This document shows positions 17,902 through 63,330 of a stretch of DNA of 64,000 nucleotides, piece by piece. The notes under the pieces were generated by a model that saw only the letters and a list, made by a program, of their open reading frames with translations, was not told the origin of the DNA and did no database searches. Position 1 is the stretch's first letter; every line of letters begins with the position of its first letter. This stretch comes from Eledone cirrhosa (taxonomy: Eukaryota). The DNA lies in assembly GCA_964016885.1 (NCBI GenBank), contig OZ024743.1, positions 290,966,001-291,030,000 of the forward strand, in the 5' to 3' direction. Position numbers and translations under genes: made by a program.

Positions 17902-20900
17902 TAGGAAAAAGTATGACCCCGACGGCAGAGCTCAAGCCGTTTCGACGGCTATTTCTGGACTAAATTAGAATGTTTAGCCTGGTATGTAAATAGCCCAACT
18001 TATCAAGGTGTATTTCTTTATATGGGAAGATTGTAGTTGTCAAGAGGATTGCTCAAGATTTGTTGTAAACACAGGATTTCGACACCAAGGAGAGATTCGG
18101 ATTCTATACCTACAAATCTCCCCCTCCGAACCCTATACTCTCACCCTTCGAGAACGACCTTTTCCACCTGGTCAAGAGCATTATATTCAAACTCAGACAC
18201 AACAGATTCCTACAACAACTGCGGAGCAAAATAATAGAGTATGAAAACACCAACAACGGCGTGGTGCAGTCGGACAAAACTGGAAACCTCTACTTCGTCA
18301 ACCCTGACAGATAGTACTCACTGATCAGGAGCAGCCTAAACTCCACCTATAAAAAGGCTAACCATTCAATTATCGAGGACATAAATCGAGATGGACAACA
18401 AATTACCTCCAGCCTCAGGGTCGCCGACCACACTGAACCCCTAAACCCGCGGACACCCTACTTCACACTGAAGGACCACAAATTCGACTTCAACCGCAAA
18501 CCATCCATCAGGCTTGTTAGGCAAAACGTGAGACTTAGCCTATGGGTCAGCACCCAGGAATTAATTTCATGGTTCAGGAATATGGAGGACCAACGAGACC
18601 CAAAATTCATCTAGTTTGACATAGAGAGTTACTATGCATCTATTAACTCACCGCTCCTTACGGCCGCCCTGGATTTGCCGAAACACTCACACACATCACC
18701 GACCAGGAAAGAATTATCATTCTCCACGCCAGGAAGATAATCCTACTTTTCGACAACTCTAAGTGGATAAAGAGAGTTCCCGACTCCCCCATTCGACGTG
18801 AGTATGGGCGCCACGGATTCGGCCGAGGTCACAGATCTTATAGGTTTATTCCTACTATTTAAACTCACCAAAATGTTTCCTGCATTCGGTGGTGGATTGT
18901 ACTGAGATGCTGGGCTCCTCACCCTCAAAGGGTACAAGCCCAGTAGTACAGACCGGGTCCGTAAACAACTCATCAACTTCTTCCGGGACTGGGGATTTAA
19001 AATCTACCAAAAAAATGTTCCTAACCCAAGTAACTTCCTGGACGTTACCCTTAACCTCGAAAATGATATGGACTGCCCATACAGGAAACCAAACGAAAAC
19101 CTGCACTACATCCACTGCCGCTCTAACCACCCTCGAAACATCACCAAAAACCTGGTTAAAAATATCTCCCTCCGCATATTTCGTTTGTCTGCTAATGAGC
19201 AGATATTCGACGAACATGCGCCTCATTACAACCAGGCCCTCAAGCGGAGTGGCTTCCGGATGAAATATCCTTTCATCCATATCCCTTAGCGGAACCAGCA
19301 GGCAACACCGCCGCTCACGCAACGTAACGTGGTACAATCCTCCTCACAATGCCGATGTGGCAACACCTATCGGGAAAATCTTCTTTACGCTCCTCGAAAA
19401 ACACTTCCCACTACAACACCGCTACCACAACATAATTAACAAAAACACCATCAAACTCTACTACAACACCGCACCTAACTTCGCTCAAATCATCGTCTCC
19501 TCAAACAGCAAAAAACTTAACACCTATGGAAGAAACAACCTAGACATCAGTGGATAGCCAACCAGGAGGTGTAACTGCCCTGATAGATCTACGTGCCTCC
19601 TCAACAACAGATGCCGAGAACGTAACGTAATCTACCAGGGCAACGTGAGGACGGACACCTCCAACAAAGCTTACATAGGATTAACCGCTTGTGACTTTAA
19701 GACCCGGCTCTACCAACATCGACATACGTTCCGAAACCCGGTCCGGCAACATGCCACTACTCTTTCAGGCCACATCTGGGACTTCCAAGATAATAATATA
19801 ACCTACAATCTCACTTGGAGCTTACTGTCCAGAGCTAACTCTTACACGGGAGGACGCCGCAGGAAACATTACAAATGCTGTTTTCGAAGGATCAACTCCT
19901 AAACAAGAAAGACGAAGTGGTAACCGCATGCAAACGCAGATTGCGTAGGACTTACCTCGCCCTCAAACCCCATAACGACCCGGGTGGGTAGACAAGAGCT
20001 GATACCCCCACTTGCCGAATAAGTTAGGAGAAACCTCAGCTTATATAGGTAGATGTACCTCTTTTCATTTCCTCTATGTTGTCTTCTTCCCCTTGTCTCA
20101 TCCTATCACTTTCTTCCACCCCCGATCTTCTTCCTCGTCTTTTACTCCACTTCCGCCTACCCCGGTGCAGCCCATCGGGCCTCTGTTGCCTCAGTACCCC
20201 CACCCCTGTAATTTTAAGATAGAATTGGCCGAATACGCTTTACTAATTATTTATAGCAGATGTGTTAGACCCATGTAATTTTATATCATTTTTGTTACTA
20301 CGCCAATTCTACAATTTCTAAATTTCTTATTTAGCATTTTCTTTTCTCAAATTATTAACCTGTAATTGTAAGTTAGCATTGGCGGAATACGCTTTACTAA
20401 CTATTTATAGCAGCTGTGTTAGACCCCTGAAAAGTTTGTATTATATTTTTTCACTACCACTTCTACAAGTTTATTATTTTCCATTCTCGACTTATTAACC
20501 TTTTCTATAGTTTTGGCCATACTAGCAACACCTACTATTTATAGCAGCTCTTTCTAGATTCTACTGTTTTTGTTTCTTTTATTCATTTCTCACTATCTAT
20601 TTTATATATGTTTTTATATTTCTTTCTATTATGTTTTAATGTCTTCTACTCCCTTCTGATTTACCTATTCTATACCCTCCCTCCTCCATTTTCTCCAGAA
20701 CAATTCTTCGACTTTTCATACACTATCCTTAGAATCTGCTGTATAGATACCACTATTAACGCTTGACCGGCTCCCCTCACTCCCTCATTGTTCTACAGGC
20801 AAGTTCAGCCACCCCTACCACCCACCAAATGCCATGATAGACTTATTTGTGTTTACAACAAATTTTAACCAATCCTCTTGACAACTACAATCTTCCCATA

Positions 20901-21192: not shown

Positions 21193-21289
21193 AAGTATGT
21201 ATCCCTACATGCAAAATACATATAGGGACACATGTATATTCCAACCGTATGCCAATGTGGTTCTATGGCAGGTTAATAAATTAACGAGC

Positions 21290-21612
21290 CACAACATATG
21301 TAATCAAGATTTAGCAAATAAGAAAACATTTTAAAATAAATTTTAAAAAGTTCACTGTACCTGCTGTAATTACCTTTACCGTACGGTTTCAAGTCTCGAA
21401 ATAAATGGATAATCCATGCGGATATCCATTTATATTCTCCGAGCGGAAAGAATCCTCTGACGATAGTCTTTCTTTTCAATGGATATCCGCATGGATTATC
21501 CATTTATTTTGAGACTGAAACCGTACGGTAAGGGTAATTACAGCAGGTACAGTGAACCTTTTAAAATTTATCTTCAAACTTTTTCTTATTTGCGAAACCT
21601 TGATTATATATA
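21290..21612. repeat. Imperfect inverted repeat (~140 bp arms) derived from an HHR-bearing terminal repeat
   Basis: 21290-21430 is the reverse complement of 21478-21612, and the block sits between (TA)n tracts. Confidence 0.85.
21453..21534 (+). ncRNA. Type I hammerhead
   Basis: TCCT-CTGACGA-T-AGTCT...AGACT-GAAA-CCGTACGG-TA-AGGG. Helix III is the 10 bp palindrome ACCGTACGGT, the site is GUA, and there is an extra hairpin in helix II. Confidence 0.8.
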
Positions 21613-21644: not shown

Positions 21645-22724
21645 ATAGGAGGCGTAAGGTTAGGCCAACGAAAATAAAGACGAAAAAACGGATAGTTTCT
21701 TTTCACAAGTAAGCTTATAAAAATCACTATTATTTCAGACCACCTACTTAAAATTAAAAGTGTTAGAAATAGTGGGAGGCTGCTTAACCAAATGAGAAAT
21801 ATAGAAGAGAGTGAAATAGAAAAAAATACGGACTAAATTTCACGTAGACTGAAATAAAAAACGTCACATATGTATAGAAAAGGTAGAAAGGGGGAATAAC
21901 GGAAGACAGGCTGGTCAGTGTAACGTCTATTATTTGATAGGAACAAAAATGTCGATGTTTATAAAGCATACGGATATGAGTCTAGAACTAGAAGGCGCAC
22001 AGATCAAAGACAATGGAAAATAAAAGGGAAAGTATACCTTGAAAATCACTATAGTTTCATTGCACCAAGGTTGATTCTATTCGATTTCGAATTTCCTGCG
22101 CAGTGGCTTCATAACAAAACATGTGAGATCATCAGATACGTGAATATATTAACATACATTACAGTAAGCCATCCCTGTTAAACACATGAATAATCACATG
22201 AAATTTTCCCTGATATTTCCGAGAGAGACATATATGAGACAATAATAATTATAACGATGCGTCAAATAAACTGATCGATAAAAATATTTCATGACAGGCT
22301 ACTGTGAATGAACCTTCTAAAATAACCGTATTCTAAATTGACGACGGCAATAACGTTGTTATTAAATTAACTTATTCCTATGCGATCAGCAATCTACGTA
22401 TTAAATGCTTTAAACAGAGGGTAGTCTGATGTATACGGAGTAATACAAAATATGGCCGTAATTGAGGGTTGCAAATATGAAAACTGTCTATGAAAAATGA
22501 CATCTATCTTATAAAACTAGTGCACCAGTACAGAAGCAATGTAGTTAAAGCTTAATTACATTGCACAGGTGAAAATCTCTTCAGCGTGTCATGGCCTCCC
22601 ATCGACAAAATTCCGAAGTATTGATTTTTTTTCGTCTAATATTATACATTTATATATGATGAGTGTGTGAGTTAGAAATTATTATTGCTTACATTTGTGT
22701 TACTGTCTATATTGTAGGGTATAC

Positions 22725-22781
<57 letters not shown>

Positions 22782-22823
22782 ATATATGTACATATATATA
22801 AATGTACATATATATGTACATAT

Positions 22824-23082
22824 GCTGTCATCAGCACCGTATACCTTCCTGTCAGTCGATTGAGCGTTTGGAAGCATGTACTTTCCTTAGGCATATTAAC
22901 GGCTGAGCAGCTTAATTTGCATATAGAGTGAGTTAGTCGGCCGGGTGTACCGAAAACGATAAAAGGAAAAAATTAAATTTAATTTCCTACTCTTAGTACG
23001 GCTGATACTTAAATATAAGTATGTATACGTAATACATATATGTATACAGACATACACTAGTATGTATATACATACATACATG

Positions 23083-23117
<35 letters not shown>

Positions 23118-23582
23118 GTATGGGTTTAGCGAACATTTATTAAAATTCTCGGTTTGTTTGTAAACAAACTGCCCGATGTTCGGCCACCATTATTGCCCTT
23201 TTGTTCAACACTGACTAAGGAACGATGAACTAGTTTCTAGCTTATTAGCTGTCATCAGCATCATATACCTTCCTGTCAGTCGATTGAACGTTTGAAAGTA
23301 TATACTTTCCTTATGCATATTAACGGCTGATCAGTCTAATGTGCATATCGAGTGACAGGAAGGTATACGATGCTGATGACAGCTAATAAGCTAGAAACTA
23401 GTTCCTGTTCCTTAGTCAGTGTTGAACAAAAGGGCAACGATAGTTGCCGAACACTGTACGGCTACTAATTCGGGCTGTTCGGTAAAATCATACGTACATA
23501 TATATATATATATATATGTGTGTGCATGTATGTATGTATATACATACTAGTGTACGTCTGAATACATACATGTATGTACGTA

Positions 23583-23590
<8 letters not shown>
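22824..23590. repeat. Duplicated and inverted HHR-bearing repeat
   Basis: 22824-22930 is directly repeated at 23248-23354. 23175-23281 is inverted at 23352-23452, and the flanking low-complexity 23020-23110 is inverted at 23495-23590. Confidence 0.8.
23223..23263 (-). ncRNA. Minimal type I hammerhead (mirror copy on + strand at 23368-23407)
   Basis: GATG-CTGATGA-C-AGCT-AATA-AGCT-A-GAAA-CTAG-TT-CATC, with palindromic loop III. Confidence 0.75.
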
Positions 23591-23664
<74 letters not shown>

Positions 23665-37459: not shown

Positions 37460-37572
<113 letters not shown>

Positions 37573-37602
37573 AAAGAATAGAGGTGTAACACACAAGTTA
37601 TT

Positions 37603-37993
37603 ATATATTGGTAAACGGAATAGAAAATGCTGACAAATTGTTCACAGTTGAAAAATGGTTTAATTAGGAATAAAAAGTATTAGTGATTGTATGGGTTTGT
37701 ATTCAGTTGTGGTTTTAAGTTTTTAAGTTTTTACCGGTTGCGCATTTCTAAATGCTTTTCAAAAATAATTTTGAGATAGAGTGTCCGTGCTGTTTGCTCA
37801 GATCAGAGCAAACAGCACGGACACTCTATCTCAAAATGATTTTTGAAAAGCATTTAGAAATGCGCAACCGGTAAAAACTTAAAAACTTAAAACCACAACT
37901 GAATACAAACCCATACGATCACTAATACTTTTTATTCCTAATTAAACCATTTTTCAACTGTGAACAATTTGTCAGCATTTTCTATTCCGGTTA

Positions 37994-38002
<9 letters not shown>
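37603..38002. repeat. Near-perfect ~400 bp palindrome containing a variant HHR on each arm
   Basis: Arms of ~200 bp with only a few mismatches, centre at ~37803. The + arm (37839-37877) reads TTT-TTGAAAA-GCAT..ATGC-GCAA-CCGG-TA-AAA. Confidence 0.9.
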
Positions 38003-38072
<70 letters not shown>

Positions 38073-38277
38073 AGTTTGGAGAACAGTCAGATGAAGTTTA
38101 CCTAATTTTTCTTCTTGGTCCGTAGAAATTAACTAGACAAGTAATCATATGTATATATGTATGTATGAAAAAGGTAAACAGAACTAACAATACAATCGGT
38201 ATAGTATATGGAAGGAATATATTAGTTTAACGCTTGAAATAGCAGGAAGAGGAACCTAACCTTTCGGATGCTAGTCC

Positions 38278-38318
<41 letters not shown>

Positions 38319-38328
<10 letters not shown>

Positions 38329-39040
38329 CGTAAAATAAGAAAATATTTTTTTAAAAAAATTTTAAAAAAATTTTTTACTTACTTACTTAAATTTTCACTC
38401 CAACTAATTAGTTTCTGCAATGGGATAAAGACAGTTACGTAATCCAACTGTCGAGAATTCATTGCGTCATCAGGGAGTCTATTCTCAGTTAAGTCTCCAG
38501 GCAATGCGCGGACACTGGCGGCTCATATAAAAATAATAATAATTCGGTAGATCGAACAGATGGCGAGGACTGGATTCCATGTACCGAAATTCTCACTGCT
38601 TCAAGTCAAATGGCCGATTCTAAAGAATCAATCACGTGACACAGAGGCTAGTTAGAAGGAATGGGATGGTAAGATGACTGACGCCTACCAACACCCCAAA
38701 AAAAAAAATTTTTTTAGAAGTGGTTTTGGCAAGTTTGCTCGACAAATCAGTGATTTGGAGATAAATATAGATAATTTAATAAATCAACTAACATAAGCGC
38801 ACAGATGCACGCCCATGCTAGCAAATACACAGGTTATGTCATAGTACCTAGGTGGTTCAATGCAGGAGAATGCAGAACAATAATATAAAAGACGTAAGAT
38901 AAGAAAATATTTTTAAAAAAATATTTTTTAAAAATTTTTTACTTACTTAAATTTTCACTCCAACTAATTAGTTTCTGCAATGGGATAAAGACAGTTACGT
39001 ATTCCAACTGTCGAGAATTCATTGCGTCATCAGGGAGTCT
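38319..39040 (-). repeat. Inverted ~1.3 monomers of the 560 bp HHR repeat (HHRs at 38397-38478 and 38957-39038)
   Basis: Reverse complement of the array monomer. It starts directly after (TA)n. Confidence 0.95.
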
Positions 39041-39048
39041 GCGTCATC

Positions 39049-42000
39049 ATAGGCGTCAGTCATCTTACCATCCCATTCCTTCTAACTAGCCTCTGTGTCA
39101 CGTGATTGATTCTTTAGAATCGGCCATTTGACTTGAAGCAGTGAGAATTTCGGTACATAGAATCCAGTCCTCGCCAGCCGTTCGATCTACCGAATTATTA
39201 TTATTTTTATATGAGCCGCCAGTGTCCGCGCATTGCCTGGAGACTTAACTGAGAATAGACTCCCTGATGACGCAATGAATTCTCGACAGTTGGATTACGT
39301 AACTGTCTTTATCCCATTGCAGAAACTAATTAGTTGGAGTGAAAATTTAAGTAAGTAAAACATTTTTTTAAATTTAAAAAAAAAAATATTTTCTTATTTT
39401 ACGTCTTTTATATTATTGTTCTGCATTCTCCTGCATTGAACCACCTAGGTACTATGACATAACCTGTGTATTTGCTAGCATGGGCGTGCATCTGTGCGCT
39501 TATGTTAGTTGATATATTAAATTATCTATATTTATCTCCAAATCACTGATTTGTCGAGCAAACTTGACAAAACCACTTCTAAAAAATTTTTTTTTGGGGG
39601 TGTTAGTGGGCGTCAGTCATCTTACCATCCCATTCCTTCTAACTAGCCTCTGTGTCACGTGATTGATTCTTTAGAATCGGCCATTTGACTTGAAGCAGTG
39701 AGAATTTCGGTACATAGAATCCAGTCCTCGCCAGCTGTTCGATCTACCGAATTATTATTATTTTTATATGAGCCGCCAGTGTCCGCGCATTGCCTGGAGA
39801 CTTAACTGAGAATAGACTCCCTGATGACGCAATGAATTCTCGACAGTTGGATTACGTAACTGTCTTTATCCCATTGCAGAAACTAATTAGTTGGAGTGAA
39901 AATTTAAGTAAGTAAAACATTTTTTTAAATTTTAAAAAAAAAATATTTTCTTATTTTACGTCTTTTATATTATTGTTCTGCATTCTCCTGCATTGAACCA
40001 CCTAGGTACTATGACATAACCTGTGTATTTGCTAGCATGGGCGTGCATCTGTGCGCTTATGTTAGTTGATATATTAAATTATCTATATTTATCTCCAAAT
40101 CACTGATTTGTCGAGCAAACTTGACAAAACCACTTCTAAAAAAATTTTTTTTGGGGGTGTTAGTGGGCGTCAGTCATCTTACCATCCCATTCCTTCTAAC
40201 TAGCCTCTGTGTCACGTGATTGATTCTTTAGAATCGGCCATTTGACTTGAAGCAGTGAGAATTTCGGTACATAGAATCCAGTCCTCGCCAGCTGTTCGAT
40301 CTACCGAATTATTATTATTTTTATATGAGCCGCCAGTGTCCGCGCATTGCCTGGAGACTTAACTGAGAATAGATTCCCTGATGACGCAATGAATTCTCGA
40401 CAGTTGGATTACGTAACTGTCTTTATCCCATTGCAGAAACTAATTAGTTGGAGTGAAAATTTAAGTAAGTAAGTAAAAAATTTTTAAAAAATTTTTTTAA
40501 AAAAATATTTTCTTTTTTTACGTCTTTTATATTATTGTTCTGAATTCTCCTGCATTGATCCACCTAGGTACTATGACATAACCTGTGTATTTGCTAGCAT
40601 GGGCGTGCATCTGTGCGCTTATGTTAGTTGATATATTAAATTATCTATATTTATCTCCAAATCACTGATTTGTCGAGCAAACTTGCCAAAACCACTTCTA
40701 AAAAAATTTTTTTTTTGGTGTGTTAATAGGCGTCAGTCATCTTACCATCCCATTCCTTCTAACTAGCCTCTGTGTCACGTGATTGATTCTTTAGAATCGG
40801 CCATTTGACTTGAAGCAGTGAGAATTTCGGTACATAGAATCCAGTCCTCGCCAGCTGTTCGATCTACCGAATTATTATTATTTTTATATGAGCCGCCAGT
40901 GTCCGCGCATTGCCTGGAGACTTAACTGAGAATAGACTCCCTGATGACGCAATGAATTCTCGACAGTTGGATTACGTAACTGTCTTTATCCCATTGCAGA
41001 AACTAATTAGTTGGAGTGAAAATTTAAGTAAGTAAGTAAAAAAATTTTTTTTAAAACTTTTTAAAAAAAATATTTTCTTATTTTACGTCTTTTATATTAT
41101 TGTTCTGTATTCTCCTGCATTGAACCACCTAGGTACTATGACATAACCTGTGTATTTGCTAGCATGGGCGTGCATCTGTGCGCTTATGTTAGTTGATATA
41201 TTAAATTATCTATATTTATCTCCAAATCACTGATTTGTCGAGCAAACTTGACAAAACCACTTCTAAAAAAATTTTTTTTGGGGGTGTTAGTGGGCGTCAG
41301 TCATCTTACCATCCCATTCCTTCTAACTAGCCTCTGTGTCACGTGATTGATTCTTTAGAATCGGCCATTTGACTTGAAGCAGTGAGAATTTCGGTACATA
41401 GAATCCAGTCCTCGCCAGCTGTTCGATCTACCGAATTATTATTATTTTTATATGAGCCGCCAGTGTCCGCGCATTGCCTGGAGACTTAACTGAGAATAGA
41501 TTCCCTGATGACGCAATGAATTCTCGACAGTTGGATTACGTAACTGTCTTTATCCCATTGCAGAAACTAATTAGTTGGAGTGAAAATTTAAGTAAGTAAG
41601 TAAAAAATTTAAAAAAAATTTTTTTAAAAAAATATTTTCTTTTTTTACGTCTTTTATATTATTGTTCTGAATTCTCCTGCATTGAACCACCTAGGTACTA
41701 TGACATAACCTGTGTATTTGCTAGCATGGGCGTGCATCTGTGCGCTTATGTTAGTTGATATATTAAATTATCTATATTTATCTCCAAATCACTGATTTGT
41801 CGAGCAAACTTGCCAAAACCACTTCTAAAAAAATTTTTTTTTTGGGGTGTTAATAGGCGTCAGTCATCTTACCATCCCATTCCTTCTAACTAGCCTCTGT
41901 GTCACGTGATTGATTCTTTAGAATCGGCCATTTGACTTGAAGCAGTGAGAATTTCGGTACATAGAATCCAGTCCTCGCCAGCTGTTCGATCTACCGAATT

Positions 42001-45000
42001 ATTATTATTTTTATATGAGCCGCCAGTGTCCGCGCATTGCCTGGAGACTTAACTGAGAATAGACTCCCTGATGACGCAATGAATTCACGACAGTTGGATT
42101 ACGTAACTGTCTTTATCCCATTGCAGAAACTAATTAGTTGGAGTGAAAATTTAAGTAAGTAAGTAAAAAAATTTTTTTTAAAACTTTTTAAAAAAAATAT
42201 TTTCTTATTTTACGTCTTTTATATTATTGTTCTGAATTCTCCTGCATTGAACCACCTAGGTACTATGACATAACCTGTGTATTTTCTAGCATGGGCGTGC
42301 ATCTGTGCGCTTATGTTAGTTGATATATTAAATTATCTATATTTATCTCCAAATCACTGATTTGTCGAGCAAACTTGCCAAAACCACTTCTAAAAAAATT
42401 TTTTTTTTGGTGTGTTAATAGGCGTCAGTCATCTTACCATCCCATTCCTTCTAACTAGCCTCTGTGTCACGTGATTGATTCTTTAGAATCGGCCATTTGA
42501 CTTGAAGCAGTGAGAATTTCGGTACATAGAATCCAGTCCTCGCCAGCTGTTCGATCTACCGAATTATTATTATTTTTATATGAGCCGCCAGTGTCCGCGC
42601 ATTGCCTGGAGACTTAACTGAGAATAGACTCCCTGATGACGCAATGAATTCTCGACAGTTGGATTACGTAACTGTCTTTATCCCATTGCAGAAACTAATT
42701 AGTTGGAGTGAAAATTTAAGTAAGTAGGTAAAAAAATTTTTTTTAAAACTTTTTAAAAAAAATATTTTCTTATTTTACGTCTTTTATATTATTGTTCTGT
42801 ATTCTCCTGCATTGAACCACCTAGGTACTATGACATAACCTGTGTATTTGCTAGCATGGGCGTGCATCTGTGCGCTTATGTTAGTTGATATATTAAATTG
42901 TCTATATTTATCTCCAAATCACTGATTTGTCGAGCAAACTTGCCAAAACCACTTCTAAAAAAATTTTTTTTGGGGGTGTTAGTAGGCGTCAGTCATCTTA
43001 CCATCCCATTCCTTCTAACTAGCCTCTGTGTCACGTGATTGATTCTTTAGAATCGGCCATTTGACTTGAAGCAGTGAGAATTTCGGTACATAGAATCCAG
43101 TCCTCGCCAGCCGTTCGATCTACCGAATTATTATTATTTTTATATGAGCCGCCAGTGTCCGCGCATTGCCTGGAGACTTAACTGAGAATAGACTCCCTGA
43201 TGACGCAATGAATTCTCGACAGTTGGAATACGTAACTGTCTTTATCCCATTGCAGAAACTAATTAGTTGGAGTGAAAATTTAAGTAAGTAAAACATTTTT
43301 TTAAATTTAAAAAAAAAAATATTTTCTTATTTTACGTCTTTTATATTATTGTTCTGCATTCTCCTGCATTGAACCACCTAGGTACTATGACATAACCTGT
43401 GTATTTGCTAGCATGGGCGTGCATCTGTGCGCTTATGTTAGTTGATATATTAAATTATCTATATTTATCTCCAAATCACTGATTTGTCGAGCAAACTTGA
43501 CAAAACCACTTCTAAAAAAATTTTTTTTGGGGGTGTTAGTGGGCGTCAGTCATCTTACCATCCCATTCCTTCTAACTAGCCTCTGTGTCACGTGATTGAT
43601 TCTTTAGAATCGGCCATTTGACTTGAAGCAGTGAGAATTTCGGTACATAGAATCCAGTCCTCGCCAGCTGTTCGATCTACCGAATTATTATTATTTTTAT
43701 ATGAGCCGCCAGTGTCCGCGCATTGCCTGGAGACTTAACTGAGAATAGACTCCCTGATGACGCAATGAATTCTCGACAGTTGGATTACGTAACTGTCTTT
43801 ATCCCATTGCAGAAACTAATTAGTTGGAGTGAAAATTTAAGTAAGTAAAACATTTTTTTAAATTTAAAAAAAAAAATATTTTCTTATTTTACGTCTTTTA
43901 TATTATTGTTCTGCATTCTCCTGCATTGAACCACCTAGGTACTATGACATAACCTGTGTATTTGCTAGCATGGGCGTGCATCTGTGCGCTTATGTTAGTT
44001 GATATATTAAATTATCTATATTTATCTCCAAATCACTGATTTGTCGAGCAAACTTGACAAAACCACTTCTAAAAAAATTTTTTTTGGGGGTGTTAGTGGG
44101 CGTCAGTCATCTTACCATCCCATTCCTTCTAACTAGCCTCTGTGTCACGTGATTGATTCTTTAGAATCGGCCATTTGACTTGAAGCAGTGAGAATTTCGG
44201 TACATAGAATTCAGTCCTCGCCAGCTGTTCGATCTACCGAATTATTATTATTTTTATATGAGCCGCCAGTGTCCGCGCATTGCCTGGAGACTTAACTGAG
44301 AATAGATTCCCTGATGACGCAATGAATTCTCGACAGTTGGATTACGTAACTGTCTTTATCCCATTGCAGAAACTAATTAGTTGGAGTGAAAATTTAAGTA
44401 AGTAAGTAAAAAATTTTTAAAAAATTTTTTTAAAAAAATATTTTCTTTTTTTACGTCTTTTATATTATTGTTCTGAATTCTCCTGCATTGAACCACCTAG
44501 GTACTATGACATAACCTGTGTATTTGCTAGCATGGGCGTGCATCTGTGCGCTTATGTTAGTTGATATATTAAATTATCTATATTTATCTCCAAATCACTG
44601 ATTTGTCGAGCAAACTTGCCAAAACCACTTCTAAAAAAATTTTTTTTTTGGGGTGTTAATAGGCGTCAGTCATCTTACCATCCCATTCCTTCTAACTAGC
44701 CTCTGTGTCACGTGATTGATTCTTTAGAATCGGCCATTTGACTTGAAGCAGTGAGAATTTCGGTACATAGAATCCAGTCCTCGCCAGCTGTTCGATCTAC
44801 CGAATTATTATTATTTTTATATGAGCCGCCAGTGTCCGCGCATTGCCTGGAGACTTAACTGAGAATAGACTCCCTGATGACGCAATGAATTCACGACAGT
44901 TGGATTACGTAACTGTCTTTATCCCATTGCAGAAACTAATTAGTTGGAGTGAAAATTTAAGTAAGTAAGTAAAAAAATTTTTTTTAAAACTTTTTAAAAA

Positions 45001-48000
45001 AAATATTTTCTTATTTTACGTCTTTTATATTATTGTTCTGAATTCTCCTGCATTGAACCACCTAGGTACTATGACATAACCTGTGTATTTTCTAGCATGG
45101 GCGTGCATCTGTGCGCTTATGTTAGTTGATATATTAAATTATCTATATTTATCTCCAAATCACTGATTTGTCGAGCAAACTTGCCAAAACCACTTCTAAA
45201 AAAATTTTTTTTTTGGTGTGTTAATAGGCGTCAGTCATCTTACCATCCCATTCCTTCTAACTAGCCTCTGTGTCACGTGATTGATTCTTTAGAATCGGCC
45301 ATTTGACTTGAAGCAGTGAGAATTTCGGTACATAGAATCCAGTCCTCGCCAGCTGTTCGATCTACCGAATTATTATTATTTTTATATGAGCCGCCAGTGT
45401 CCGCGCATTGCCTGGAGACTTAACTGAGAATAGACTCCCTGATGACGCAATGAATTCTCGACAGTTGGATTACGTAACTGTCTTTATCCCATTGCAGAAA
45501 CTAATTAGTTGGAGTGAAAATTTAAGTAAGTAAAACATTTTTTTAAATTTAAAAAAAAAAATATTTTCTTATTTTACGTCTTTTATATTATTGTTCTGCA
45601 TTCTCCTGCATTGAACCACCTAGGTACTATGACATAACCTGTGTATTTGCTAGCATGGGCGTGCATCTGTGCGCTTATGTTAGTTGATATATTAAATTAT
45701 CTATATTTATCTCCAAATCACTGATTTGTCGAGCAAACTTGACAAAACCACTTCTAAAAAAATTTTTTTTGGGGGTGTTAGTGGGCGTCAGTCATCTTAC
45801 CATCCCATTCCTTCTAACTAGCCTCTGTGTCACGTGATTGATTCTTTAGAATCGGCCATTTGACTTGAAGCAGTGAGAATTTCGGTACATAGAATCCAGT
45901 CCTCGCCAGCTGTTCGATCTACCGAATTATTATTATTTTTATATGAGCCGCCAGTGTCCGCGCATTGCCTGGAGACTTAACTGAGAATAGATTCCCTGAT
46001 GACGCAATGAATTCTCGACAGTTGGATTACGTAACTGTCTTTATCCCATTGCAGAAACTAATTAGTTGGAGTGAAAATTTAAGTAAGTAAGTAAAAAAAT
46101 TTTTAAACATTTTTTTAAAAAAATATTTTCTTTTTTTACGTCTTTTATATTATTGTTCTGAATTCTCCTGCATTGAACCACCTAGGTACTATGACATAAC
46201 CTGTGTATTTGCTAGCATGGGCGTGCATCTGTGCGCTTATGTTAGTTGATATATTAAATTATCTATATTTATCTCCAAATCACTGATTTGTCGAGCAAAC
46301 TTGCCAAAACCACTTCTAAAAAAATTTTTTTTTTGGGGTGTTAATAGGCGTCAGTCATCTTACCATCCCATTCCTTCTAACTAGCCTCTGTGTCACGTGA
46401 TTGATTCTTTAGAATCGGCCATTTGACTTGAAGCAGTGAGAATTTCGGTACATAGAATCCAGTCCTCGCCAGCTGTTCGATCTACCGAATTATTATTATT
46501 TTTATATGAGCCGCCAGTGTCCGCGCATTGCCTGGAGACTTAACTGAGAATAGACTCCCTGATGACGCAATGAATTCACGACAGTTGGATTACGTAACTG
46601 TCTTTATCCCATTGCAGAAACTAATTAGTTGGAGTGAAAATTTAAGTAAGTAAGTAAAAAAATTTTTTTTAAAACTTTTTAAAAAAAATATTTTCTTATT
46701 TTACGTCTTTTATATTATTGTTCTGAATTCTCCTGCATTGAACCACCTAGGTACTATGACATAACCTGTGTATTTTCTAGTATGGGCGTGCATCTGTGCG
46801 CTTATGTTAGTTGATATATTAAATTATCTATATTTATCTCCAAATCACTGATTTGTCGAGCAAACTTGCCAAAACCACTTCTAAAAAAATTTTTTTTTTG
46901 GTGTGTTAATAGGCGTCAGTCATCTTACCATCCCATTCCTTCTAACTAGCCTCTGTGTCACGTGATTGATTCTTTAGAATCGGCCATTTGACTTGAAGCA
47001 GTGAGAATTTCGGTACATAGAATCCAGTCCTCGCCAGCTGTTCGATCTACCGAATTATTATTATTTTTATATGAGCCGCCAGTGTCCGCGCATTGCCTGG
47101 AGACTTAACTGAGAATAGACTCCCTGATGACGCAATGAATTCTCGACAGTTGGATTACGTAACTGTCTTTATCCCATTGCAGAAACTAATTAGTTGGAGG
47201 GAAAATTTAAGTAAGTAAAAAAATTTTTTTTTAAACTTTTTAAAAAAAATATTTTCTTATTTTACGTCTTTTATATTATTGTTCTGTATTCTCCTGCATT
47301 GAACCACCTAGGTACTATGACATAACCTGTGTATTTGCTAGCATGGGCGTGCATCTGTGCGCTTATGTTAGTTGATATATTAAATTGTCTATATTTATCT
47401 CCAAATCACTGATTTGTCGAGCAAACTTGCCAAAACCACTTCTAAAAAAATTTTTTTTGGGGGTGTTAGTAGGCGTCAGTCATCTTACCATCCCATTCCT
47501 TCTAACTAGCCTCTGTGTCACGTGATTGATTCTTTAGAATCGGCCATTTGACTTGAAGCAGTGAGAATTTCGGTACATAGAATCCAGTCCTCGCCAGCCG
47601 TTCGATCTACCGAATTATTATTATTTTTATATGAGCCGCCAGTGTCCGCGCATTGCCTGGAGACTTAACTGAGAATAGACTCCCTGATGACGCAATGAAT
47701 TCTCGACAGTTGGATTACGTAACTGTCTTTATCCCATTGCAGAAACTAATTAGTTGGAGTTAAAATTTAAGTAAGTAAGTAAAAAAATTTTTTTTAAAAC
47801 TTTTTAAAAAAAATATTTTCTTATTTTACGTCTTTTATATTATTGTTCTGAATTCTCCTGCATTGAACCACCTAGGTACTATGACATAACCTGTGTATTT
47901 TCTAGCATGGGCGTGCATCTGTGCGCTTATGTTAGTTGATATATTAAATTATCTATATTTATCTCCAAATCACTGATTTGTCGAGCAAACTTGCCAAAAC

Positions 48001-50201
48001 CACTTCTAAAAAAAATTTTTTTTTGGTGTGTTAATAGGCGTCAGTCATCTTACCATCCCATTCCTTCTAACTAGCCTCTGTGTCACGTGATTGATTCTTT
48101 AGAATCGGCCATTTGACTTGAAGCAGTGAGAATTTCGGTACATAGAATCCAGTCCTCGCCAGCTGTTCGATCTACCGAATTATTATTATTTTTATATGTG
48201 CCGCCAGTGTCCGCGCATTGCCTGGAGACTTAACTGAGAATAGACTCCCTGATGACGCAATGAATTCTCGACAGTTGGATTACGTAACTGTCTTTATCCC
48301 ATTGCAGAAACTAATTAGTTGGAGTGAAAATTTAAGTAAGTAAAACATTTTTTTAAATTTAAAAAAAAAAATATTTTCTTATTTTACGTCTTTTATATTA
48401 TTGTTCTGCATTCTCCTGCATTGAACCACCTAGGTACTATGACATAACCTGTGTATTTGCTAGCATGGGCGTGCATCTGTGCGCTTATGTTAGTTGATAT
48501 ATTAAATTATCTATATTTATCTCCAAATCACTGATTTGTCGAGCAAACTTGACAAAACCACTTCTAAAAAAATTTTTTTTGGGGGTGTTAGTGGGCGTCA
48601 GTCATCTTACCATCCCATTCCTTCTAACTAGCCTCTGTGTCACGTGATTGATTCTTTAGAATCGGCCATTTGACTTGAAGCAGTGAGAATTTCGGTACAT
48701 AGAATCCAGTCCTCGCCAGCTGTTCGATCTACCGAATTATTATTATTTTTATATGAGCCGCCAGTGTCCGCGCCTTGCCTGGAGACTTAACTGAGAATAG
48801 ACTCCCTGATGACGCAATGAATTCTCGACAGTTGGATTACGTAACTGTCTTTATCCCATTGCAGAAACTAATTAGTTGGAGTGAAAATTTAAGTAAGTAA
48901 GTAAAAAATTTTTTAAACATTTTTTTTAAAAAATATTTTCTTTTTTTACGTCTTTTATATTATTGTTCTGAATTCTCCTGCATTGAACCACCTAGGTACT
49001 ATGACATAACCTGTGTATTTGCTAGCATGGGCGTGCATCTGTGCGCTTATGTTAGTTGATATATTAAATTATCTATATTTATCTCCAAATCACTGATTTG
49101 TCGAGCAAACTTGCCAAAACCACTTCTAAAAAAATTTTTTTTTTGGGGTGTTAATAGGCGTCAGTCATCTTACCATCCCATTCCTTCTAACTAGCCTCTG
49201 TGTCACGTGATTGATTCTTTAGAATCGGCCATTTGACTTGAAGCAGTGAGAATTTCGGTACATAGAATCCAGTCCTCGCCAGCTGTTCGATCTACCGAAT
49301 TATTATTATTTTTATATGAGCCGCCAGTGTCCGCGCATTGCCTGGAGACTTAACTGAGAATAGACTCCCTGATGACGCAATGAATTCACGACAGTTGGAT
49401 TACGTAACTGTCTTTATCCCATTGCAGAAACTAATTAGTTGGAGTGAAAATTTAAGTAAGTAAGTAAAAAAATTTTTTTTAAAACTTTTTAAAAAAAATA
49501 TTTTCTTATTTTACGTCTTTTATATTATTGTTCTGTATTCTCCTGCATTGAACCACCTAGGTACTATGACATAACCTGTGTATTTGCTAGCATGGGCGTG
49601 CATCTGTGCGCTTATGTTAGTTGATATATTAAATTGTCTATATTTATCTCCAAATCACTGATTTGTCGAGCAAACTTGCCAAAACCACTTCTAAAAAAAT
49701 TTTTTTGGGGGGTGTTAGTAGGCGTCAGTCATCTTACCATCCCATTCCTTCTAACTAGCCTCTGTGTCACGTGATTGATTCTTTAGAATCGGCCATTTGA
49801 CTTGAAGCAGTGAGAATTTCGGTACATAGAATCCAGTCCTCGCCAGCTGTTCGATCTACCGAATTATTATTATTTTTATATGAGCCGCCAGTGTCCGCGC
49901 ATTGCCTGGAGACTTAACTGAGAATAGATTCCCTGATGACGCAATGAATTCTCGACAGTTGGATTACGTAACTGTCTTTATCCCATTGCAGAAACTAATT
50001 AGTTGGAGTGAAAATTTAAGTAAGTAAGTAAAAAATGTTTAAAAAATTTTTTTTTTTAAATATTTTCTTTTTTTACGTCTTTTATATTATTGTTCTGTAT
50101 TCTCCTGCATTGAACCACCTATGCACTATGACATAACCTGTGTATTTGCTAGCATGGGCGTGCATCTGTGCGCTTATGTTAGTTGATATATTAAATTATC
50201 T
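39049..50201 (+). repeat. Tandem array of ~20 x ~560 bp non-coding monomers, each containing a type I hammerhead (retrozyme-like)
   Basis: CTGATGACGCAATG recurs at ~39264, 39821, 40378, 40941, 41505, 42068, 42633, 43197, 43754, 44311, 44874, 45439, 45996, 46559, 47124, 47684, 48249, 48806, 49369 and 49933. No ORF of 60 aa or more. The array ends in a TA run. Confidence 0.97.
39259..39340 (+). ncRNA. Type I hammerhead ribozyme motif of the array monomer (first + strand copy)
   Basis: ACTCC-CTGATGA-C-GCAATG..GACAGTT/AACTGTC..CATTGC-A-GAAA-CTAATTAG-TT-GGAGT. Predicted cleavage is after GUU at 39335/39336. Confidence 0.8.
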
Positions 50202-51747
50202 CTATATATATATATTTATATATTTACGCAGTTACGCAACACCTTACTGGCAGTGCACTTTTTCGTGCACTACTTCTGTACTCCTCTTGTGTTGTCGGGT
50301 TATGCAATAGATCACAGCCCGCTCTGCTGGTCTGATGCATGTAAAACTGTAATAAAACAAAGAATAGACAAAGAAATGTACTTATGTCTTTCTACGAAAG
50401 GAGATAAATACTTGAACAATTACAACTAGAATTAAATTGAGAAAAGGTTGAGTGTGTGTGAGTGTGTGGAAGGGTGTTAAAGTGTGTTTCTTTTTCTGTT
50501 TGTGTATGTGTGTGTGTTTCTATGTGATTTTATATGTATCTGCCTATGACTATCTAGGTACACCTGATAAGTCGAAGTGTTAAACATAACTTGAAATAGT
50601 ACACACAATGATCAATATAATTTCAATGGCTTTAGTGCTGTAACTGCGACAGTGAACATTACAGTAAATTAGTTTCCAGGATATTTCTCATAATTGAAAA
50701 TCACAAGATGAAATAGAAATTGTGGATCATATTGAAAATCGATAAATGAAGGTAACAATATTACCTATAAGGTTTCAGATGCTTTGTGTCATTTCTTATG
50801 TAATATAAGATATATATGACTAGGTTGTGTTTAATTTCGACCTACCTTACCTGCTACTGCTGTTTCGTAACGTAGGGATTGTAGAAGCCATTCCTGATGT
50901 CAAGCCCTTTGCCAGTCATATACATATCTCTAATCGAACATATTTTAAGGAAAATCACTTCGTAATTTAAACACTATAGAATGATAAGAATTAAGTTCAA
51001 ACCTTATGGTATTATCACTTAAGTTAATAAGTTATATACTCCTTCTTTTCTTTCTTTTTCTGTTCTTTGTCATATTGAAGTTATTAATATTTACTGAACA
51101 CTAGGTTCGGTTTAACGTATTCTACTATCGAAAAAAAACCAACAATTAATTGATGTTGAAGGTGTTTACGATATATGGATATATGGTTTAATGTGAAATA
51201 AATATTATCCGATAAAAAAACACAATAGAATTGCATTTCATTGTATTTATTTATTAAAGGACTGGTTAGATTTGTGAGTTTAATGCTCATCATATTTTAC
51301 AGCTGAATATATTAGTTCGCGTCGCAGTTTACTGCCTCTACTTACAACACGCAGGGAAACGTTATATTAATGTGTAGCATGTTACACACAAAACATTATC
51401 AATTAAAATAACAATTAAAATAGATTTTTTATGGCCATTCTCTTTGATAGAGTTAAATAGACAATAATTTAGGGTAACATATTACAGTTATGTATAAATT
51501 TCGCATAGATGACTGTTTTTATAGGACACAGTCATGGCTGGGTGAAGAAGACGTTTCGTTCTCAAATCATAAAGCCTGCAATTATACCGATAATTAATAG
51601 CTCCCTCGTTGTCATATATGTTTACGCGCTGATTGTGTTAATTCACGTGGTAGATATTCTCATGAGCTCGAAACATTGAATTCTCAAAACTGAAACCGAT
51701 GGAGGAATTGTTATCATAGTTATGAGGTAAATTCTGATGAATATAAT

Positions 51748-58709: not shown

Positions 58710-58713
<4 letters not shown>

Positions 58714-61277
58714 AACGAGTAGGACCCCGACGGCTGAGTTCAAGCCGTTTCGACGGTTAATTCTGGACTAAATGTAAATATTTATCCTGGTATATGAATA
58801 GCCGAGCTTCTCAGGGGGTAATTCCATATATGGTAAAAGTGATTGTCACAAGGATTGGTCAAAAGTTTGTTGTTGAGACACATAATTCTATCATGCCAAT
58901 TTGTGGAAGGAAGGGGTATCTGAACCTGCCAGTAGAAGAAAGAGGGAGAGGGGGTGGAGGAAACCCAGTCGTGCGTTGATAGTGCCAACTACAGCAGGGC
59001 ATGAGGTCAAGGAAGTATACTGGGGAGGGGGAGGAAGTCGAAACAATAAGTAAAACAATATGGGGTAAATATATAGAAAAATACCGAGAATGTTAAAAAA
59101 ACAATTAAATATAAAAGAAACAATTTCTGATTGCTATAACCTAAGGACAGCTATCAAGTCTCTTACTGGTACTGCTAGACTAAAGAAAGGTTTACTAGGT
59201 GGGACGGAATTATAATGAGATCCTTTTAAGAGGTAGTAGTAATCAACCGAGTATATCTTACGGTGACGGGTCAACAAGTGGGGGGCCAAAATACTAATGA
59301 AACTACCACGAAATAATAATTCAGAGTCCCGAGACTAATACGAAATAATGGTTTCTACCCTAGGTACAAGGCCAGCAACCACCCAGTGCAAAAAATAAAC
59401 TAATACTAAATAATAATTCAGAATCCCGAAAAAGAATACTAATACTATCTCTAAGGGTGCCGCTACGATACAAAAATTATAGTGCAAAGTACATAAATGC
59501 TTGTACGAAGTATATGAAGAATTTGATACGGAAAATAAATTCAGAACCCCCCCCCCCCCAAAAAAAAAAAATAAATACTGATATACGAGAAATTAAAGCA
59601 AAGATACCACTAAGAAATGTAGAAAGCACGGAAAACGGGCAGCCATCGGTTAAGAAGGCAAATATCCGGGGTCTATCACATCTGCTATGAAAAGCGGAGT
59701 CAGCCAATTCTACCATAGAATAGGGGAAGGGGGTGTGGGTACTGAGGCTACAAAGGACCGAGGGGCTGCCTCGGGTGGGCGAGAGAGTGAAAAGGACGAC
59801 GACAAAGAAAGAGGACTCGGGTGGAAGGACAGGGAGGGTTGGGGGGAAGAAGGAAATATAGAGAAAGCGATAAAAAGATATAAAAGGTGATCTTACGTCT
59901 AGCTTTGCAAGCAGAGGTTACCCATTACAAAGTCGGCAAGTGGGGTGTTACAGCCCTTGTCTATCCCCTCCCCCCGGGGGTCATTATGGGGTTTGAGGGC
60001 GAGGTAAGTCCTACGCAATCTGTGTTTGCATGCAGTTACCAGTTCATATTTCTTGTTTAGGAGTTGGTCCGTCGAAAACAGCATTTGTAAAGTTTCCTCC
60101 GAGCATAAATTCCACGGACGGCGTCCTCCGGTGTAAGAGTTGGCTCTGGACAGTAAGCTCCAAGTGAGGTCATAGGTAATATTGTTATCCTTGAGGTCCC
60201 AGAAGTGGCCCGAAAGTGTAGTGGCGTGACGCCGGGCCAGGTTTCGGAAGGTATGTATGTGTTGGTATAGCCGGGTCTTGAAGTCACATGCGGTTAATCC
60301 TATATAAGCTTTGTTGGACGTGTCAGTCCTCACGTTGCACTGGTAGATCACACTACGATCTCTGCATCTGTTGTCGTGGGGGCAAATGGATCCATCAGGA
60401 CAGTTGCACCTCCTGGTCGGCTCTCCACTGCAATTTAGGTTATTTCTTCCATAGGGGTTGAGTTTTTTGTTGTTAGAGGAGACCATGTTTTGTGCAAAGT
60501 TTGGAGTGGTGCTGTAGGAGAGTTTGATGGTATTTTTGTAAATTATGTTGTGGTAGCGGTGTTGTAATGGGAAGTGATTTTCAATGAACATAAAGAAGAT
60601 TTTCCCGATGTTGTCACATCGGCGTTGTGGGGAGGATTGAACCATGTTACATTGCGTGAGCAGCGGTGTCGCCTGCTGGTTCCGCTAATGGAAACTGGAC
60701 AGTAGAATATTTCCTCCCGGAAACCACTCCGCTTAAGGGCCTGATTGTAATAAGGCGCATGTTCCTCGAATATCTGCTCATTAGCGGACAAACGAGATAT
60801 GCGGAGGGAGATGTTTTTAACCAGGTTATTGGTGATGTTCCTAGGATGGTTTGACCGGCGGAGGATGTAGTACAGGTTGTCGTTGGGTTTCCTGTATGGG
60901 TAGTACAGATCATTATCGAGATCAAGGGTAACGTCCATGAAGTTTACTCCGGTCAGGGACGTTTGTAGGGTTATTTTAAATCCCCAGTCGCGGAAGAAGC
61001 TGATTAATTGTTTACGGACCCGGTCTGTACTACTGGGGTTGTTCCCTTTGACCAATCCTTGTGACAATCACTTTTAACATATATGGAATTACCCCCTGAG
61101 AAACTAGGCTATTCATATACCAGGATAAACATTTTCATTTAGTCCAGAATTAGCCGTCGAAACGGCTTGAGCTCAGCCGTCGGGGTCCTACTCGTTCCTA
61201 TTACCCACTCTACTACCCTAAGTATTGAGTACTTTGGTGCGTTATGGTCCAGCTGGTTCCTTACCACATTTCCTTCG

Positions 61278-61278
<1 letters not shown>
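58710..61278 (-). mobile_element. Penelope-like element, family B, second copy (5'-truncated, inverted 5' pLTR piece 61050-61278)
   Basis: ORFs 60543-61067 (NFMDVTL, PYRKPN, WFNPP) and 59899-60645 (SVIYQC..AYIGLT..RLYQH) are joined by a frameshift. 58710-58860 is inverted at 61050-61200. (TA)n on both sides. Confidence 0.92.
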
Positions 61279-61322
<44 letters not shown>

Positions 61323-61751: not shown

Positions 61752-61882
<131 letters not shown>

Positions 61883-61902
61883 AATGTTTATGAATATGAA
61901 TT

Positions 61903-63323
61903 CTCCACTCACACTATGCTAAACCAATGACCTCCAAATACCTGATACTCAAAAGCTCAGCAATGTCCAGTAGTGCTAAGTTTAATATTCTGATCGCAGA
62001 TTTGGTACGAGTGATGAAGAATGTGTCCCGCATGTGCGAGCCAACAGAAATGGAAATACACATCCAACACTTCATCAACCGCATGCAGTTCTCAGGCTAC
62101 AACCAAAGAGACAGAGTCAGAGTATACGAAGGAGCCATGGAGAAGTATAATACCCTCATAGAACTGGACATGAAAGGAATTTGCCCATTATACAGGAGCA
62201 AATCATGGAATAGCTTAGATAGGGCTAGACATAAGATAGGGAAAGCCACCTCATAGTACGACAACCAGAGAGACCAGAGTGTCATGTTAGTGGACGCTAC
62301 CCCTGGAGAGAAATTAGCGAATCAGTGTAGAAAGGCCCTAAGAAAGACCCACTGAAAGATTAAGGTGGTAGAAAAGCCAGAAACCACCATAAAATCCCTG
62401 ATCAGCAAAACCTACCCTTTTAAGAAAACCCACTGTACTAATAGGAAATGTATCATATGTAAGGTAAACCCCCAGGATAAACTGTAAAACTAGAAACATA
62501 GTCTATAGCATAAGATGTACAGAGGGTACTTGCAGAAACATGACAACAACATACATAGGCGAGACAGCTCCTAGCATAGGTGAAAGGATAGACCAACACT
62601 GGGGGGAACTAAAAGGACGAAAAAACGGGTCAGTACTATACGAACATGCCAGACAACAACACGACAGTAACATAGACAACATAGAAATTAGAATAATATC
62701 TAAACATAGAAATGGCCCAGCACATAGGCAAATCAGAGAGGCCAGTGAAATAGAACTTAGAAGGCCAAGACTAAACAGAAAGAATGAATGTAATAACAAC
62801 AACACCCAAACAAACAACACTGTATAAATAAATAAATAAATAAATAAATAGATAAATAAATAAATAAATACATACACAAGCACAATAACAACAAACACAT
62901 ATAAACAAACACTAGTCACCCAATCACGAGCACACATCACACATAACACTATACACCCACGCAAACGCATGCGCAAAGAAGACAAAATAAAATAAACAAA
63001 CAAACAAATAAATAAATATATATATAGACAGACTAAATAAAAATGGCGTAGACATACAATGTAACGGGAGGAAACAATAGCACCACTGACGATGTTGCAG
63101 ATGTGCAACGAAATAACTTTGATAAACTATATATATGTGTTTGTGTCGATATTGTATCTGTATTATTTTTGACCGTCGGTCAGTCAATGGCAACATTGAG
63201 GACCGAATAAATTAGATTACCGATATAAAAGACACAGAAGCGAAAAGCGAAAACCGACCAAACAGTGAGTGTGTTTGTTATTAATTCTGGCAATATTACA
63301 CAAATATGACCCTCCCCAAGTAT

Positions 63324-63330
<7 letters not shown>
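61903..63330 (+). mobile_element. 5'-truncated PLE family A-related copy (RT thumb, GIY-YIG, terminal repeat with HHR at 63082-63123)
   Basis: ORF 61927-62256 (RMQFSGY, PLYR) and ORF 62540-62827 (YIGETAPSIGERIDQH) are homologous to 16200-17060. The terminal repeat has CTGACGA-T-GTTGCA..TGCAAC-GAAA. Confidence 0.9.

Follow-up and report, generated by a model that had tools for sequence, protein, structure and literature searches.

A dispersed hammerhead repeat of Eledone cirrhosa, likely a non-LTR retrozyme, with insertions of the Penelope-like type

How does a non-coding repeat that carries a hammerhead ribozyme (HHR) in every unit come to form a long tandem array in the genome of Eledone cirrhosa? 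The question is raised by a stretch of 64,000 nucleotides (contig OZ024743.1 of assembly GCA_964016885.1, positions 290,966,001 to 291,030,000 of the forward strand; hereafter the window, numbered from its first nucleotide), in which an earlier note had described an 11.9 kb array of ~560 bp monomers and proposed that it was a retrozyme. Our analysis of the genomic sequence leads us to the view, at a probability of about 0.68, that the array belongs to a dispersed, non-coding retrozyme lacking long terminal repeats (a non-LTR retrozyme). Its RNA likely cuts itself, likely circularizes, and is likely pasted into (TA)n tracts by the reverse transcriptase (RT) and endonuclease of a Penelope-like element (PLE). 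Animal non-LTR retrozymes are known, and their mobilization by PLEs has been proposed (Cervera and de la Peña 2020, PMC7229834; here and below, citations refer to the parts of each source available to us). They have been linked to pseudo-LTRs (pLTRs), with units of 51–972 bp (Li et al., bioRxiv 10.64898/2026.07.22.740005). The mechanism of this mobilization is called unresolved in the literature (PMC7229834, PMC8557442, 10.64898/2026.07.22.740005), and PLE mobilization of animal retrozymes, a circular template, and cutting in vivo by hammerheads of the PLE type have so far been proposals.

The window copies contain all the elements of a hammerhead, namely CUGANGA, GAAA, a UH triplet and three helices. 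The first plus-strand copy of type I occupies 39259–39340, with the predicted cut between 39335 and 39336. Its helix I (39259–63 with 39336–40) is followed by the core at 39264–70 and by C39271, juxtaposed with A39321. Helix II (39272–77 with 39315–20) is extended by a distal helix (39285–91 with 39301–07). GAA lies at 39322–24, the palindromic helix III at 39325–34, and U17 at 39335. Helix I is ACTCC/GGAGT, with ATTCC (giving a G-U pair) in five copies and GGAGG in one; helix II is GCAATG/CATTGC, the distal helix GACAGTT/AACTGTC, helix III the palindrome ACTAATTAGT, and the triplet GUU. The CTGATGA core with the full helix set is found 20 times on the plus strand (from 39264 to 49933) and twice on the minus strand (39033 and 38473), confirming both the copy numbers and the helices given previously. 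The earlier description of a complete type I fold stands as regards the three helices, the core and covariation, but the fold is not canonical at its junction. The base after CUGAUGA is C in 137 of 139 copies and the one before GAAA is A in all 139, and because this C·A juxtaposition comes first at the base of helix II the canonical G-C pair lies one step further out.

Is the fold maintained among diverged copies? Helix counts were made with one copy per locus and type (n = 99), and six types of helix II are each represented by two or more copies. The second pair of helix II is C-G in 56, G-C in 17, U-A in 16 and A-U in 10 (99/99 paired), and the fifth is U-A in 77, G-C in 20 and broken in two (97/99 paired). 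Pairs 1–4 of helix I are retained in 96–99 of the 99 copies. Among 30 aligned copies 98.6% of 360 cells pair, against 28–52% in slid controls. Double-sided changes number 31, compared with 10.5 in shuffles, and the covariation score was reached by none of 500 shuffles. Two pair-count measures on these 30 copies are not above the shuffles (500/500 and 482/500), and relatedness among the copies inflates the covariation counts. The invariance of helix III is uninformative because the search pattern fixed it, and the constancy of the catalytic core bases, which also formed part of that pattern, is to be read accordingly; N7 is T in 122, C in 16 and G in one of 139 copies. A lack of preferential conservation of the HHR helices among diverged copies was one of the observations that, taken together, the earlier note would have held against its proposal. 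We find that the helices are kept and that helix II covaries, and structural selection on the hammerhead fold is supported. Beyond the ribozyme, 20 of 109 pairs predicted for the whole monomer (numbered from the G after the predicted cut, 39336, as position 1) have double-sided changes, including those of a hairpin at about positions 130–182 and of a long-range stem. Folding of four monomers as circles gives z scores of −3.1 to −7.8 in 4/4, against 20 shuffles each.

Is the repeat confined to this array? An exact 27-nt pattern spanning the cut site has 4,248 genome-wide matches, and one with helices I and II left free has 10,578; the reversed controls have none. The genome-wide search proposed in the earlier note thus reveals a dispersed family. 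The first 100 matches of the 27-nt pattern correspond to 58 loci over 88 Mb of one contig, all of which were analysed. There are at least six subfamilies, and those other than the window's were sampled through their first 40 positional loci plus 23 best-hit loci (two overlapping loci having been dropped). Full monomers across the family are 521–594 nt long and 69–97% identical to that of the window; an apparent monomer of 471 nt is an artefact spanning two insertions. No LTR pair with an internal region appears in the anatomy of the 58 loci, no separate search having been made for a PBS (primer-binding site) or a PPT (polypurine tract). Four sets of sequencing contigs show the presence of the repeat and its variants, with no information on ends or strand.

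The insertions have a defined anatomy. In the 58 loci 93 of 95 3′ ends fall at monomer position 78 (47 ends; the short site) or position 200 (46 ends; the tailed site). In the first plus-strand window monomer these sites lie at 39404–39413 and 39526–39535, and are the two places where reverse transcription would have started. The 122-nt ‘tail’ between them (39414–39535, plus strand) contains a covarying hairpin at about 39465–39517, and measures 114–117 nt in other subfamilies. Outer 5′ ends are scattered along the monomer, and the median insertion is 741 bp. At least 10 nt of (TA)n adjoins 94 of the 95 3′ ends, compared with 113 of 638 flank windows. A (CT)n stutter of at least four units is found at 13 of 57 tailed ends, and would fit slippage at initiation. 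An inverted arm is present in 38 of the 58 loci, always head-to-head and never tail-to-tail. Of the 58 loci, 35 allow classification at both outer ends, and each of the 35 combines a short end with a tailed one; the remainder comprises 21 loci with one outer 5′ end (one being a chain merged with its neighbour) and two with an unclassified end. The other subfamilies follow the same rule, in 16/16 classified positional loci (16 more being one-ended and eight having an unclassified end) and in 11/11 best-hit loci (six one-ended, six unclassified). The total is 62/62 fully classified two-ended loci with one end of each kind (p about 4e-19). The window array obeys the rule, with position 78 at 38319 and position 200 at 50209.

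This anatomy matches features of PLEs, for which 5′ truncation, partial tandems, an inverted 5′ copy, a preference for (TA)n and a tail of 30–40 bp, often on one end, have been described (Craig et al. 2021, PMC8557442). The PLE protein cuts and extends both strands, and the PLE tail spans the interval from one internal RT start to another (Frangieh et al. 2024, PMC11167929). With their 5′ truncation, head-to-head inversion, one-ended tail and microsatellite target, the insertions are of the PLE type, and spread of the repeat through RNA in the manner of PLEs is very likely.

How are the two arms of one locus related? In the 26 of 38 inverted loci with enough overlap for comparison, the arms differ over shared positions by a mean of 1.4%, against 6.5% to other loci; the own arm is nearer than the median in 23 of the 26 and tied in three. 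On this comparison both arms of a locus derive from one RNA variant. The arms of L027, L044 and L067 carry non-overlapping parts of the monomer, so that neither can be a DNA copy of the other, and this rules out a DNA fold-back as the origin of the second arm. A fold-back artefact of assembly is ruled out by the fixed biological ends, the 1.4% arm divergence and the non-overlapping content. The 38 inner junctions have an overlap in 18 cases, extra bases in 13 and are blunt in seven; five are symmetric. The long arm favours neither end type, the tailed arm being the longer in 17 of 38.

Does the RNA cut itself in the cell? If it were occasionally cut, run-off of the complementary DNA (cDNA) would be expected at position 1. 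Truncation patterns that demand two non-matching bases upstream have 29 genome-wide matches at +1 and 52 at −1, with seven at −3 and two at −6. The matches at +1 represent 27 loci; all are junctions and none is a mutated intact copy, and microhomology of three or more bases is seen at four of the 29. Of the 52 matches at −1, 30 were inspected and every one is a junction, a few of them representing the second strand or a duplicate of another locus, while the seven at −3 include two mutated intact copies and two duplicates; the two at −6 are uninspected. Both arms end within 2 nt of the cut site in eight loci. This truncation peak is likely an indirect record of cleavage in vivo, and we hold such cleavage to be probable with good confidence.

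What is the template for reverse transcription? Read-through copies number in the thousands, against 81 matches stopping at the cut site, and read-through junctions are exact in 208 of 215. Since read-through is both far commoner and precise, most templates were continuous across the site, either as circles or as uncut multimers. In eight of 11 arrays the monomers have 0–1.3 differences from one another, against 4.4–7.2 to other loci, the arrays of the window, L008 and L061 being more varied, and homopolymer lengths vary from lap to lap within arrays. Low divergence within an array together with lap-to-lap change of homopolymers is as expected from one monomeric template; local DNA duplication yields part of the same picture. 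In folding predictions of the circle, the 3′ strand of helix I is paired with a putative decoy, CAUUCC (39631–39636, plus strand). This pairing prevails over helix I in 15 of the 17 circles folded, and the decoy lengthens when helix I lengthens. The decoy helix is thus predicted to act as a lock against re-cutting. On balance we regard a circular template as the more probable.

The events could then run as follows. Tandem copies would be transcribed, and their HHRs would cut after GUU, probably as dimers formed through the palindromic helix III. Most monomers would be ligated, the decoy helix disfavouring re-cutting. The PLE protein would nick both strands of a (TA)n tract, whereupon the two DNA ends would prime on a single RNA variant, one of them at position 78 and the other at position 200. 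The two cDNAs would extend over variable distances, sometimes for several laps, before end joining linked them head-to-head. Linear templates would make up a few percent, and on these the cDNA would run off at the cut site. It is possible, at somewhat less than even odds, that the full cycle is recorded here in its strictest form, with an HHR of C·A core cutting in vivo, a circle locked by a decoy helix that covaries, and a dimeric PLE-type RT obligatorily priming both nicked (TA)n ends at two fixed sites of one RNA, so as to leave exactly one end with a tail and one without. If true, this would be a sense-strand, two-ended, rolling-circle reverse transcription, and would explain the tails and inversions of PLEs in general.

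A number of points weigh against the retrozyme reading, and the first group concerns the ribozyme. No R10.1–Y11.1 pair stands directly after A9 and before G12, C·A preceding the conserved G-C pair. Rfam, with which the earlier note would have checked the monomer, finds no hammerhead at the gathering threshold in the whole window or at E ≤ 10 in 39200–39950, and the hammerhead motif therefore rests on covariation. Helix III has 4 bp and a 2-nt loop, with P < 0.1 in the folded monomer, and a duplex of two helix III palindromes has −9.0 kcal/mol. Because helix III is negligible in the monomer while two palindromes pair, cleavage would be dimeric, as has been described for such HHRs (PMC4209133). 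Eight of nine predicted Xenopus retrozymes were inactive in vitro (10.64898/2026.07.22.740005), and RNA ends at the PLE hammerhead site have been sought and not found (PMC11167929). The truncation pattern placed at +5 as a control has 77 matches; 27 of the 30 inspected come from an unrelated repeat family and ~15 may be true truncations, so that polymerase pausing at helix I or end resection also contributes. The T before +1 may be templated or untemplated. Could the insertions be of the PLE type and the ribozyme be catalytically dead, its fold serving as a binding or pausing element and the peak reflecting a polymerase pause at the three-way junction? Replacement of the direct G-C closing pair by C·A would suit such an explanation, as would the truncations at +5 and the occurrence of fold-back junctions elsewhere too (5/38). 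We consider it very unlikely, since the core bases, themselves included in the search pattern, persist whereas N7 varies, the peak lies at +1/−1 with an about sevenfold or larger drop by −3, extra bases at the helix II base are known in PLE HHRs (PMC4209133), and an active axolotl HHR has a U·U mismatch at the helix II base (PMC7229834).

The second group concerns the template. Uncut multimers account for read-through equally well as circles, and the decoy provides no clean switch between linear and circular forms because it wins also in many linear folds. In the single reconstituted PLE cleavage was dispensable, unprocessed RNA being the main substrate (PMC11167929). The family might then be a non-autonomous PLE copied from uncut linear multimers, the HHR being slow or protein-dependent, the circle unneeded, and tandem templates giving tandem copies. 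That would accord with an end anatomy identical to that of PLEs, with the excess of read-through copies over those stopping at the site, with the dominance of unprocessed RNA in the reconstituted system and with the weak monomeric fold of the HHR. We nonetheless think it unlikely. Monomers of young arrays have locus-specific substitutions in common (8/11 arrays) while their homopolymers vary by lap, most loci contain one or two HHRs and yet new multi-lap arms keep arising, and the whole monomer has a compact covarying fold; none of these is decisive.

The remaining points concern sampling, target sites and partners. Presence of an HHR was the criterion by which loci were selected, either along the first 88 Mb of one contig or among the best hits, and target-site duplication is unreadable because the ends sit inside (TA)n. 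As to the source of the protein, the genome has two abundant PLE families with long open frames. One of these encodes a 719-aa RT/GIY-YIG protein with an intact open reading frame (ORF), is assigned to the PLEs by atlas clusters with HTH_animal/GIY-YIG, and is Hydra-like by eye against a published alignment (supplement of Craig et al.). It inserts in (TA)n, with one short and one tailed end, on our reading, in 10 of 11 classified two-ended insertions (four more being unclassified). A blastn comparison of nine natural monomers with 50 loci of the two autonomous families sampled (34 from searches and 16 around long ORFs) finds no partner match. The sole matches are an independent retrozyme copy in L191 and low-complexity sequence. 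Four DNA motifs and one protein motif have no match in the supplement of Craig et al. Having no sequence in common with the monomer, the 719-aa PLE is a candidate partner only. The earlier suggestion of nearby PLEs as candidate partners is thus not borne out by sequence matches in the two families sampled, though one of them has the same end rule.

How does the window array itself fit this picture? The whole insertion (38319–50209) consists of two head-to-head arms with both 3′ ends facing outward into (TA)n. The start given previously is correct, but homology reaches 50209, 8 bp past the former end at 50201. A (TA)n tract at 38281–38323 overlaps the short end of the element via microhomology of the TATAT type. 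The left arm (38319–39040, minus strand, 722 bp) comprises positions 479–557, one full monomer and positions 1–78, with two HHR copies, terminating at the short site. An 11-bp insert at the junction (39041–39051) is mostly copied from the neighbouring TGCGTCATCA. The right arm (39052–50209, plus strand) comprises positions 274–557, 19 full monomers of types A–D and positions 1–200, with 20 HHR copies; it terminates at the tailed site, where there is a short (TA)n tract (50203–50216). The 20 full monomers (19 plus, one minus) measure 557–565 bp, agreeing with the ~560 bp stated before, and the unit-length predicted cleavage product at 39336–39892 (plus strand) is of 557 nt. A lack of coding capacity had also been noted, and accordingly the longest stop-to-stop frame in the plus arm has 68 codons and the longest Met-started one 58; there is no ORF of 100 aa or more in 38319–50209, and an ORF for RT and GIY-YIG is absent from the unit. 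There is no tRNA in 38000–41000. A B-box-like stretch in the window monomer is not kept in other subfamilies, and for that reason no promoter is proposed.

The 20-monomer length is mostly the result of secondary local expansion. Types A–D differ from one another by 4–7 substitutions, near the 8–9 that separate the two window arms, and by 1–3 within a type; their order on the plus strand is A A B (D/A) B C D A A B C A B C D C A B D. This irregular higher-order arrangement contradicts an origin of the array in a single event of 20 laps. We infer that the plus arm began as about four original laps, which aged and were later multiplied about fivefold by unequal local exchange of DNA. A similar 8.5 kb array at L079 (G000:C4:68365300-68375200), with 14 full monomers in five groups of identical copies, is a recent local expansion. 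The 11.9 kb array had been taken as the functional unit; the 741-bp median of the 58 loci points instead to a short insertion, and the window array to mostly later growth. Might the repeat as a whole be satellite DNA, spread at the DNA level by extrachromosomal circles and unequal exchange, with the hammerhead a relic? The higher-order and identical-copy patterns of these two arrays are what it would predict, and for local array growth alone it stands. As an account of dispersal it is contradicted, and exceedingly improbable: the fixed 3′ and variable 5′ ends, the one-of-each rule, the (CT)n stutter, the compensatory changes between subfamilies and the cut-site peak point to an RNA template. 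Separately, five near-identical short retrozyme insertions within 25 kb (G000:C4:291982952-292007403) are probably a larger tandem segmental repeat.

In its genomic features the family has much in common with the animal non-LTR retrozymes. Both are non-coding tandem repeats in which every unit bears a single type I HHR, with GC below 50%, a self-paired monomer, thousands of monomer-to-multimer copies and co-existing PLEs. The length, thought unusual in the earlier note, falls within the 51–972 bp spanned by reported families (10.64898/2026.07.22.740005). The identification as a non-LTR retrozyme made of tandem repeats with a type I HHR holds up, on covariation, dispersal, the lack of an ORF and the PLE-type ends. 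Unlike retrozymes as described, the family has a conserved C·A junction, a long interrupted helix II, insertions of explicit PLE anatomy, and truncations that peak at the cut site. The predicted decoy contrasts with most animal retrozyme circles, in which the HHR is unblocked (PMC7229834). With endonuclease-containing (EN+) PLEs (PMC8557442, PMC11167929, PMC3846280) it shares 5′ truncation, partial tandems, a head-to-head inverted copy, a one-ended tail, (TA)n preference, two fixed internal 3′ ends, and an HHR whose helix III is palindromic and whose A9 is followed by an extra base. It differs from them in having no ORF, a tail of 114–122 rather than 30–40 nt, and many full laps. One tailed end is invariable here (62/62) and ‘often’ found in EN+ PLEs (PMC8557442), and there is TA microhomology to the target at both ends, whereas the anole PLE starts at non-homologous sites. 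In Chlamys, non-autonomous PLEs such as MRC1 have 3′ ends like those of their autonomous partners and generally no HHR (PMC8557442); the present family carries an HHR in every unit, and no similarity to a partner was found for it in the two PLE families sampled.

How much of this has been seen before? The words ‘octopus’ and ‘cephalopod’ are absent from the main text of PMC7229834, and the sampled groups of 10.64898/2026.07.22.740005 include no mollusc; a squid genome paper gives 235 Rfam hammerhead loci. We found no account of this family or of a cephalopod retrozyme in the literature, though Repbase, subscription papers and supplements (those of PMC7229834, part of PMC4209133 and the 2026 preprint) may list such. 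New features are the core with its C·A, the long tail and the predicted decoy, together with the quantitative evidence on insertion. Rfam misses a C·A core, which suggests that hammerheads are undercounted in such genomes. With ~10,000 young short copies, two start sites, a strict end rule and a peak at the scissile bond, each step of the retrozyme cycle becomes testable, and the family supplies a defined substrate of 520–560 nt and a (TA)n target for PLE assays in vitro. The evidence argues for a sense-strand template against the idea of antisense self-priming (Arkhipova et al. 2013, PMC3846280).

The window contains further elements of related kinds. A broken Hydra-like PLE, a copy of the 719-aa family, lies at 58711–61280, with RT and GIY-YIG fragments on the minus strand (59899–61067); it has a short end and a tailed end of ~80 nt, both in (TA)n, with frames of ~790 codons elsewhere in the genome, and there is no CUGANGA core in its terminal repeat. 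A second Hydra-like fragment is found at 18844–19902 (plus strand). Fragments at 61882–63330 and, putatively, 15824–16165 belong to a PLE-like family with a C-terminal GIY-YIG. For the former, frames reach 1,273 codons elsewhere, and a 3′ hammerhead half-core lies at 63086. Pfam gives nothing informative for seven window fragments or three long ORFs. A second hammerhead family, flanked by TA and minimal in its helix II, with the same C·A junction and GUU triplet, is present at 22720–23660 and in L146–L155; it has 847 exact matches and a tandem period of 434 bp in L151. A third tandem family (L248:1150-2150 and most of L225–L254), with a period of ~318 bp, has a hammerhead-like fold whose core we read as a U3–A8 variant; a stretch of 17 nt 3′ of helix I is common to it and the main family. 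Minus-strand hammerhead-like motifs with a short helix II are found at 24011 and 26966, and a fold-back element at 21200–21605 has a hammerhead-like core at 21457. Lastly, a near-perfect fold-back of 390 bp (98%) lies between (TA)n tracts at 37570–37997, its left end being the longer, and related sequence is present in 15 of 261 loci.

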